Origin: Escherichia phage CBA6
Length of the DNA stretch: 9,022 nucleotides
Sequence record: KM389297.1
Strand: one strand, 5' to 3'
Shown here: one piece after another, positions 6,151-8,294 of the stretch
How positions within the stretch are numbered: position 1 is the stretch's first letter
Layout: each line of letters starts with the position of its first letter
The notes under the pieces: model-generated
What the model was told of the DNA's origin: nothing
Database searches by the model: none
Seen by the model: only the letters and a program-made list of their open reading frames with translations
Program-made: the position numbers and the translations under genes

Positions 6151-6438
6151 ATGAAGAAATATGTTCGTCTGAACACTGTACTTGAATCAGTTATAGAATA
6201 TTTCATAATGCAGCACCTCAGAGCAGAAAATGAACACGTGAGCGACGCTCTGACTTATGATCACCGGATAGTGGTTCATTCCGTCGAAATAGTGGATGAC
6301 GAATTGTTGATTGCCAATGTTGAGCATGCTCTCTGGGATGAAGTGTTAGATCAGTACGTTCAACCGAAGTTCACACAGATCGAGTTATCTGCCATGTGGC
6401 CACCTGAAACAGTTTTCAATATTGATATACAAAGTTAA
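6151..6438 (+). CDS. Hypothetical small acidic protein (95 aa)
   Basis: ATG 6151 preceded by AGGGGG (6141-6146), 17 nt after the upstream stop. About 19 Asp/Glu against about 6 Lys/Arg. Confidence 0.5.
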   Translation: MKKYVRLNTVLESVIEYFIMQHLRAENEHVSDALTYDHRIVVHSVEIVDDELLIANVEHALWDEVLDQYVQPKFTQIELSAMWPPETVFNIDIQS

Positions 6439-6516
6439 TATTCACGTCAGTCCGCGCTATTCCAGCGTTCCGTTGTCTAACACAGAAGTGTTAACCAACT
6501 TTTCAATAAAAAGTGG

Positions 6517-6544
6517 TTTACATCTTCTAAAAAGGCAGTATATT
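6517..6544 (+). promoter_or_regulatory. Sigma70-like promoter candidate (-35 TTTACA, 16-nt spacer, -10 TATATT) for the 6612 gene
   Basis: TTTACA at 6517-6522; TATATT at 6539-6544. Contains the same AAAAGGCAGTATA motif (6530-6542) seen upstream of gene 32. Lies in a 173-bp intergenic region. Confidence 0.4.
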
Positions 6545-7571: not shown

Positions 7572-7599
7572 TTTAACTCAGAAGCATTCAATAGATGAA

Positions 7600-7633
7600 G
7601 GGGCTGCTATAATAGCAGCTCCTTTTGTTTATT
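7600..7633 (+). terminator. Rho-independent terminator
   Basis: GGGGCTGCT-ATAAT-AGCAGCTCC: 9-bp stem with one G-U pair, then TTTTGTTTATT. Starts 29 nt after the stop at 7571. Confidence 0.75.
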
Positions 7634-7643
7634 GGAGCACACC

Positions 7644-7718
7644 ATGTCGTATTCGCTCAAAGGGTTGTTGAAGCGCCCCGTACATCTGTTTGCTGTCGAA
7701 GGGGAATATCCGGCATGA
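7644..7718 (+). other. 24-codon mini-ORF with strong RBS, ending at a TGA that is in frame with the downstream kinase
   Basis: GGAG (7634-7637) with 6-nt spacer to ATG 7644; translates MSYSLKGLLKRPVHLFAVEGEYPA then TGA at 7716-7718. The kinase ORF begins 6 nt later in the same frame. Confidence 0.3.
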
Positions 7719-7724
7719 GGAGAG

Positions 7725-8294
7725 TTGTATTACGTTAAAGGCTCCAACGGTAGCGGCAAGTCCACTGTCCCTTCCTATCTGGCGGAGAATGATCCTCAGG
7801 CGTATGTCGTGACCTACAATGGCAAGATCATGCTCACAGTTTGCCCTTCCTATAACATTATCTGTATTGGTAAATATGACAAGTCTAAGTCTAAAGGTGT
7901 TGATTCCCTGAAAGATACCGAGCAGATGTTGTTCGCCTTGTCCATTGCTGATCAGCCGGAATATCTGAAATATGACGTGTTGTTTGAAGGAATCATCCCT
8001 TCAACTTTGCTCAGCTCATGGATTCCCCGCCTGACGCGCCCACCGCGCGAATTAGTCGTGCTCTTCATGGACACCCCGCTTGAAACCTGTGTTTCCCGTG
8101 TGAAATCACGCAACGGCGGCGCAGACTTCAATGAAAGCCTGGTTGTCGAAAAGTGGGAGAGAGTTCATGACCACCGCCAACGGCATAAAGGCTTGTTCCC
8201 TACCGTTCCCGCAGGTATGATGAAGTCCAATGGCCTGACTATAGAGCAGGCTGTTTTTGCGTTTCTCAATCGTGATTTTGGGAGTATTGATTGA
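7725..8294 (+). CDS. P-loop nucleotide/nucleoside kinase-like protein (189 aa); substrate unknown
   Basis: Walker A GSNGSGKST at residues 6-14 after the beta-strand-like LYYVK. The only start codon in frame after the TGA is TTG 7725; GAGG at 7717-7720 gives a 4-nt spacer. Stop TGA 8292-8294 overlaps the ATG of the next gene. Confidence 0.65.
   Translation: MYYVKGSNGSGKSTVPSYLAENDPQAYVVTYNGKIMLTVCPSYNIICIGKYDKSKSKGVDSLKDTEQMLFALSIADQPEYLKYDVLFEGIIPSTLLSSWIPRLTRPPRELVVLFMDTPLETCVSRVKSRNGGADFNESLVVEKWERVHDHRQRHKGLFPTVPAGMMKSNGLTIEQAVFAFLNRDFGSID

Follow-up and report, generated by a model that had tools for sequence, protein, structure and literature searches.

A conserved acidic accessory protein in a three-gene module of Ackermannviridae phages, and its distance from Ocr/ArdA-type DNA mimics

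Small acidic phage proteins are frequently DNA mimics or inhibitors of host nucleic-acid enzymes, and a sequence-only reading of Escherichia phage CBA6 had proposed, from composition, that one 95-aa protein of this phage has such an anti-defence profile. Does the locus bear this out? We analyzed a stretch of 9,022 nucleotides from sequence record KM389297.1 (hereafter the window), which matches Salmonella phage Vi01 (Kuttervirus, Ackermannviridae) along its entire length at 98.9% identity. Positions 5399-6459 show no base difference from Vi01, and the DNA of the gene in question, here called orf95, is 100% identical to Vi01_063c. The open reading frame and the Shine-Dalgarno (SD) sequence of its own that had been read from the letters were both confirmed, down to the ATG, the AGGGGG at 4 nt and the TAA, and the neighbor directly upstream is indeed acidic. 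The ATG of orf95 lies 17 nt past the stop codon of this upstream 243-aa ORF (orf243), and an SD-like sequence precedes the gene at all homologous loci. The gene and its neighbors on which the analysis draws are as follows.

4635-5339, plus strand: gp2 DNA end protector, context gene
5402-6133, plus strand: orf243 (Vi01_064c; PHROG 4253), acidic, net charge -15, pI 5.10
6141-6146, plus strand: Shine-Dalgarno sequence AGGGGG of orf95, 4 nt 5' of the ATG
6151-6438, plus strand: orf95 (Vi01_063c, orf00070; PHROG 4562), ATG, 95 codons, TAA
6612-7571, plus strand: orf319 (Vi01_062c; PHROG 3905), third member of the trio described below, acidic, net charge -24
7644-8294: kinase of 5-hmdU DNA (gp67 in ViI), Pfam PF18748 at E 9e-107

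The orf95 protein matched the PHROG 4562 profile at E 4e-53, with residues 1-95 aligned to profile positions 1-95 of 103. A tblastn match to orf95 was present in 255 phage records, and all annotated ones listed carry the label "hypothetical protein." Judging from these matches, PHROG 4562/Vi01_063c is the family of orf95 itself, a known family of hypothetical proteins of Ackermannviridae. A word-indexed homolog search returned six proteins and its repetition with a profile 17, an HMM search run exhaustively over 1.84 billion cluster representatives returned eight, and a scan of IMG/VR identified 20 loci, all of them in genomes of 154-164 kb with identical synteny. As far as sequence searches reach, the family is small and confined to the Ackermannviridae, every homolog with a checkable source coming from a genome or context of this type. 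No mention of the orf95 protein was found in the literature searched on its locus tags and accessions, on Ackermannviridae transcriptomics or on anti-defence.

Within Kuttervirus, the dN/dS of orf95 is 0.014-0.08 with dS up to 0.64; within Miltonvirus it is 0.027, and within Taipeivirus dN is 0. Neighboring genes have similar dN/dS values (tail tube, 0.02; orf319, 0.03; gp2, 0.00). The orf95 is a real coding gene under strong purifying selection.

The gene has been lost from LIMEstone1 (Limestonevirus, NC_019925), in which a remnant can be read on the minus strand in the region 11463-11667. The intergenic DNA after the orf243 homolog starts there with TTGGTTTTCAATATTGACGTTGAAAGTTAA, coding for LVFNIDVES and a stop, which corresponds to the last eight residues of the Agtrevirus protein plus the stop (the last nine codons are left). 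The alignment reveals a clean deletion of ~265 nt that takes out the SD sequence, the start codon and ~86 codons; the regulatory region downstream of the deletion is intact. Dickeya phages were not among the 255 records with a tblastn match, yet 19 Dickeya records matched the DNA of the region. In Kuttervirus aagejoakim (MT074474.1, 97436-97666), an in-frame deletion of 18 codons removes most of strand 1 of the predicted fold, and the protein is probably non-functional in this viable phage. Since orf95 is absent from Limestonevirus and truncated in aagejoakim, it is dispensable: an accessory gene, though strongly constrained wherever it is kept.

The orf95 protein contains 17 acidic residues (D7, E10) and six basic ones (K3, R3) together with H5, giving a net charge of -11 and a pI of 4.55. 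The strongly negative charge and the six basic residues given by the sequence-only reading hold, and its count of about 19 acidic residues was slightly high. Set against the 76 proteins annotated in the first 50 kb of Vi01, orf95 has the most negative net charge per residue (-0.116) and the fifth lowest pI (sample median, 5.9). The acidity of orf95 exceeds the Vi01 background. It is also a property of the family: all 21 members compared, down to 26% identity, are acidic, with net charges of -7 to -20, pI values of 4.05-4.87 and charges per residue of -0.075 to -0.183. Conservation reaches 85% or more in ten acidic columns of the family alignment, including E12, E16, E46, D49, D50, E51, E58, D63, and E78.

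An AF2 model of orf95 built with 17 family sequences reached a pLDDT of 80.9 and a pTM of 0.69. It comprises two helices (residues 9-26 and 28-36) followed by three strands (38-49, 52-63, and 73-80), and the BFVD models of the Erwinia and Serratia homologs, obtained independently, agree with it at TM 0.75-0.79. With good predicted confidence, orf95 is modeled as a small alpha+beta domain, a helix packed on an antiparallel sheet, possibly in a cystatin-like manner. In this model, the conserved acids E12 and E16 are placed on helix 1, E46, E58, and E78 midway along the three strands, and D49-D50-E51 at the tip of a hairpin. Residues 84-95 have a pLDDT below 50. The C-terminal W-P..V-F-N segment is conserved without a confident fold in the model, and F89 and N90, both invariant or nearly so, are modeled at this low confidence, as would be expected of a docking motif. 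Homologs outside Kuttervirus and Agtrevirus carry an additional C-terminal tail of 8-30 residues that includes aromatics; in the more distant genera these tails are strongly acidic (for example, ...DEFEDSDYRGF, ...VYDEANSFR, and ...YEDFFEEYDS).

The modeled fold carries no functional transfer. A Foldseek search against all 350,542 PDB chains gave a best E of 0.12, and the Foldseek lists contained no known anti-defence structure (Ocr, ArdA, Ugi, Arn, anti-CRISPR or other); no enzyme-like match to the model was found. Neither orf95 nor any of 17 family members belonged to a Pfam family at threshold, ArdA included. The PADLOC defence-system models gave no match at E up to 1, nor did NCBIfam or PDB, the latter queried by sequence and by profile. 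Chaperone homology, named beforehand as a refuting observation for the anti-defence proposal, was absent from Pfam, PHROGs, and NCBIfam.

The position of orf95 is remarkably stable. The order gp32, tail tube (opposite strand), gp2 DNA end protector, orf243, orf95, orf319, 5-hmdU DNA kinase, and dUMP hydroxymethylase-like thymidylate synthase is identical in Kutter-, Agtre-, Taipei-, Milton-, and Nezavisimistyvirus and in one metagenomic contig of 156 kb; the genes past the thymidylate synthase vary somewhat from genus to genus. From the tail tube gene up to and including orf319, a shorter metagenomic contig agrees with this order. Short Logan contigs of the most distant relative (26% identity) retain the trio of orf243-, orf95-, and orf319-like genes, preceded there by a gene other than gp2. 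Because the trio persists where gp2 no longer adjoins it, the conserved unit is the trio and not a link to gp2. At every locus, 12-41 nt separate orf243 from orf95, and both genes are therefore probably co-transcribed; a G-rich SD run lies inside this gap in eight of nine loci.

The first gene of the trio evolves very differently from the second. Kuttervirus has two alleles of orf243, of 243 and 248 aa, which share 79% amino acid identity and are set between genes that are 97-100% identical. In the same pairs of Kuttervirus genomes, gp2 is identical and orf95 is 97-98% identical (dN about 0.01), and orf243 differs at 21% of its amino acids. Between genera, orf243 identity is only 24-38%; from Kuttervirus to Agtrevirus, amino acid identity is 77-90% for the flanking core, 66% for orf319, 64% for orf95, and 32% for orf243. 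Conservation in orf243 is limited to RIFGxEF, TGYExG, and DFxxG near the N terminus and PNFY near the C terminus. With orf243 hypervariable while orf95 barely changes, the gene that resembles a participant in an arms race is orf243 and not orf95. A homolog search with orf243 returned only two close proteins, its AF2 model had a pLDDT of 38.6, and neither orf243 nor orf319 matched Pfam, NCBIfam or PDB sequences. The orf319 protein has a Glu-rich central stretch, and its N-terminal 76 aa are kept even in the most distant contig (42% identity).

Several features of the surrounding genes are recorded here in their own right. The stretch 3750-4500 in the tail-tube gene holds 61 of the 103 differences of the window from Vi01, a divergence of ~8% against <0.5% elsewhere, which suggests that this 750-nt stretch is a recombination patch. 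The kinase gene, whose product in ViI (gp67) was shown to have kinase activity by Lee et al. (PMC8989533), is mislabeled "terminase small subunit" or "baseplate hub" in many records. Relative to Vi01, its copy in the window lacks 12 nt in frame at 7690, and a C-to-T substitution at 7716 places an in-frame TGA at codon 25; the P-loop and most of the domain are still covered by an ORF that restarts at TTG 7725.

Candidate expression signals were located along the trio and upstream of it.

4594-4601, plus strand: late-type element TTTAAATA, preceding gp2
4615-4622, minus strand: perfect late-type element TATAAATA, preceding the tail-tube gene
5340-5365, plus strand: promoter-like motif TTCTAA-N14-GATAAT, upstream of orf243-orf95
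6517-6544, plus strand: sigma-70-like promoter TTTACA-16-TATATT of orf319, in eight of eight orf95-carrying loci
7597-7625, plus strand: strong intrinsic terminator hairpin (-30.6 kcal/mol, z -6.0), closing the trio
Copies of the promoter-like motif: window 5340-5365 and 7587-7613; Vi01 26244-26269, 29980-30005, 38896-38922, and 41144-41169

The interval between gp2 and orf243 contains a hairpin in most loci and a -10-like TATAAT or GATAAT in all nine; in most of the nine loci, this -10-like element sits 12-15 nt past a TTC(A/T)A(T/A) element. In the window, the motif at 5340-5365 is partly inside a hairpin at 5345-5379 (-15.7 kcal/mol), and its position is kept in seven of nine loci. In this copy, as in that at 7587-7613, the -10-like hexamer is located in a hairpin loop. 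The pattern TTC[AT]A[TA]-N12-15-[TG]ATAAT occurs five times in positions 1-50 kb of Vi01, where 100 first-order Markov simulations predict 0.48 +/- 0.70, and four of the five copies are intergenic and upstream of correctly oriented genes. Its position is conserved across genera before orf243 and before the 5-hmdU kinase operon, and before gp32 in some genera. According to Kutter et al. (PMC3184105), MotA and AsiA are absent from ViI-like phages, in which neither early nor middle promoters had been identified. The TTC(A/T)A(T/A)-N12-15-(T/G)ATAAT pattern may represent the early or middle promoter class left unidentified in that 2011 paper on CBA120. If the motif is a promoter, a reading that follows from its consensus, orf243 and orf95 would be expressed together with the genes of DNA metabolism.

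A second route of expression is conceivable. The back-to-back late-type elements are well conserved, the one on the gp2 side being kept in eight of eight loci compared and both in seven of eight. The hairpin after gp2 has no strong T-run, and late read-through into orf243-orf95 is therefore possible; the late-type promoter upstream of gp2 could possibly drive orf95 in this way as well. A T4-type late promoter right before orf243 (TATAAACA, 5381-5388) was also considered and rejected, because only 13 nt separate it from the ATG and it would run into the SD sequence.

Downstream of orf95, the annotation of LIMEstone1 places an early promoter at the position equivalent to the orf319 promoter. A perfect palindrome, TAACAC-N4-GTGTTA, lies at 6478-6493, ~25 nt 5' of the -35 element of this promoter, and is kept in Agtrevirus and Limestonevirus with different loop bases; it might serve as an operator or form an RNA hairpin. 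The next promoter-like motif (7587-7613) precedes the 5-hmdU DNA kinase gene and has its TATAAT in the loop of the terminator hairpin. An Rfam search of the window identified no RNA family.

Data on virion composition are available for phage Sajous1, whose CsCl-purified particles yielded 61 proteins by mass spectrometry (PMC10892097). The list includes gp26 (gp2) with three spectra and gp29 (orf319) with 10, and contains neither gp28 (orf95) nor gp27 (orf243). Since orf95 should give tryptic peptides of 15, 18, and 22 residues, its absence from the list is meaningful, though not proof. The second refuting observation named beforehand, a lack of any protein product, did not arise, the analysis of the protein having covered virions. 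In the LIMEstone1 record, the homologs ORF047 and ORF048 are without the confirmed-structural flag, unlike ORF50 and ORF059-062, and ORF047 and ORF048 do not occur in the LIMEstone1 paper. The LIMEstone1 homolog of orf319 is not flagged as confirmed structural, yet orf319 gave 10 spectra in the Sajous1 virion.

What, then, might orf95 do? The reading that we place first, tentatively and with somewhat less than even confidence, is that of a non-structural accessory protein acting by stoichiometric binding, in which the conserved acidic surface contacts a basic surface of a partner and the C terminus provides a second contact. Under this model, orf95 would be made from the same message as the hypervariable orf243, as part of a module of three genes (orf243, orf95, and orf319) that stay together throughout the family, and would be expressed alongside genes of DNA metabolism, before or during replication. 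It would work stoichiometrically through protein-protein binding, its putative acidic surface docking on a basic, probably nucleic-acid-binding surface of the partner and thereby blocking or redirecting it, and the C-terminal motif, or the tail in other genera, would form the second contact. The partner might come from the host, in the sense of counter-defence or takeover, or from the phage itself, with orf243 and orf319 as examples. Counting against this model are the strong purifying selection and fixed synteny, in which orf95 differs from most mobile anti-defence genes, and the near-constancy of orf95 beside a variable orf243, unexpected for a tight obligate complex of both.

A narrower proposal, close to the original one, is that orf95 acts as a DNA mimic or in anti-defence by filling the site at which a host nuclease, such as a restriction enzyme or RecBCD, binds DNA. 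It can draw on the highest negative charge density in the Vi01 sample, which is near that of Ugi (-0.116 vs. -0.143), on the conservation of the acidic positions, including the mid-strand Glu residues of three strands and the DDE hairpin tip, on the absence of orf95 from the virion list, and on its dispensability in some lineages. The gp2 DNA end protector is encoded close by, and a block of RecBCD would complement it; an acidic inhibitor of a nucleic-acid enzyme would also fit the promoter-like motif common to the genes of DNA metabolism. However, orf95 resembles neither Ocr, ArdA, Ugi nor any solved anti-defence protein in sequence or fold, and its charge density is about half that of Ocr. 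A dN/dS of ~0.02 and an invariant synteny are unlike those of arms-race genes, and orf95 has a fixed position, purifying selection of core-gene strength and no mobility. In addition, Vi01-like phages already shield their DNA by 5-NeOmdU hypermodification (PMC8989533), and the literature searched held no experimental link. We consider this proposal unlikely; in a looser sense, orf95 may still act as an acidic inhibitor of a nucleic-acid enzyme.

A bolder form of the same idea is that orf95 founds a new class of nucleic-acid mimics, in which a cystatin-like domain with a Glu stripe and a DDE hairpin, joined in some genera by an acidic aromatic tail, would act inside the cell against a host enzyme of DNA ends or DNA binding (such as RecBCD, or a nuclease of restriction or defence), blocking it and so complementing the virion-borne gp2. 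To this version we give rather little credence.

Just as little can be given to the view that orf95 is a dedicated partner of orf243, whether as regulator, antitoxin-like neutralizer or folding helper, with a role only inside the phage module. The tight linkage at every locus (12-41 nt), the relative at 26% identity included, speaks for such a pairing, and so does the faster evolution of orf95 (64%) and orf243 (32%) between genera relative to the flanking core (88-90%). Against it, LIMEstone1 has orf243 without orf95, and within Kuttervirus the near-constancy of orf95 (97-98% identical, dN about 0.01) beside a 21% amino acid difference in orf243 is contrary to the prediction of a tight obligate complex.

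The possibility that orf95 is a late morphogenetic factor, that is, a chaperone or transient assembly partner for gp2, head completion or the tail tube, appears distinctly improbable to us. Many T4 assembly chaperones are small, acidic, and missing from virions. The orf95 lies two genes downstream of gp2 with the tail-tube gene close by, the late-type TTTAAATA before gp2 is conserved, and the weakly T-tailed hairpin after gp2 would permit read-through. Limestonevirus, however, has deleted orf95 yet keeps gp2, the tube gene, and the structural genes of its virion proteome; the trio is not beside gp2 in the most distant relative; orf243-orf95 have their own promoter-like motif, shared with genes of nucleotide metabolism; and Pfam, PHROGs, and NCBIfam offered no chaperone homology.

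Least probable of all is a role as an accessory of thymidine hypermodification or nucleotide metabolism, inhibiting a competitor of the 5-hmdU pathway among the host enzymes or serving as a small metal-binding subunit through its His and Glu residues, for although H29, H43, H59, E46, E58, and E78 are conserved in the alignment, 5-NeOmdU was reconstituted in vitro with only gp67, gp160, gp226, gp243, and gp247 and needed no orf95 (PMC8989533), Limestonevirus has the kinase and hydroxymethylase genes without orf95, and no enzyme-like fold match is at hand.

The tentatively preferred reading of orf95 as a binding protein bears on phages of practical interest. Vi01-like phages (Kuttervirus and relatives) are widely used in the biocontrol of Salmonella and E. 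coli O157, and over half of their genes have no function assigned. Nearly universal in the family, and constrained yet dispensable, orf95 lends itself to study as a candidate host-interaction factor. Should it turn out to inhibit a nuclease or DNA-binding protein of the host, it would bring a new fold into the repertoire of DNA mimics and anti-defence proteins and help to explain host range. As the evidence stands, orf95 is another conserved hypothetical protein and would not surprise a specialist; what the analysis chiefly offers is a negative answer on mimicry of the Ocr/ArdA type, along with a three-gene module now defined, a deletion found in nature, candidate residues, and a candidate promoter class.

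Among known systems, the nearest fold class for the orf95 model may be the cystatin-like one (cystatins, latexin, IseA/YoeB, VirB8, and NTF2-like proteins). A direct reading of the sequence located neither cystatin signature: the QxVxG motif of the first hairpin is absent, the tip being D49-D50-E51 and the nearest similar string QYVQP at 68-72, and so is the PW motif of the second hairpin, W83-P84 being reversed and outside a hairpin.

The comparison with Ocr and ArdA that the sequence-only reading had called for was carried out and failed on fold, Pfam, profile, and charge density. Like these proteins, orf95 is small, acidic, phage-encoded, and of low pI. The Ocr fold is helical, whereas the orf95 model is alpha+beta; the charge per residue is -0.239 in Ocr and -0.116 in orf95; and the orf95 gene is located neither at a genome end nor in a leading region, unlike those of Ocr and ArdA. 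Alignment of the orf95 profile to Ocr (T7 gp0.3) with hhalign gave a probability of 0.08, the sole PHROG match of orf95 being 4562. With an alpha+beta model, no ArdA domain, null profiles, and about half the charge density of Ocr, membership of orf95 in the Ocr/ArdA type is rejected.

A profile comparison with Ugi of PBS2 was null, and no Ugi-type relationship in sequence or fold was found. In general features, Ugi and orf95 are similar in size (84 vs. 95 aa) and in charge per residue (-0.143 vs. -0.116) and share the mixed alpha/beta class, and both proteins come from phages with non-canonical pyrimidines in their DNA. The C-terminal tails of the distant orf95 homologs, in turn, recall those of SSB and T7 gp2.5.
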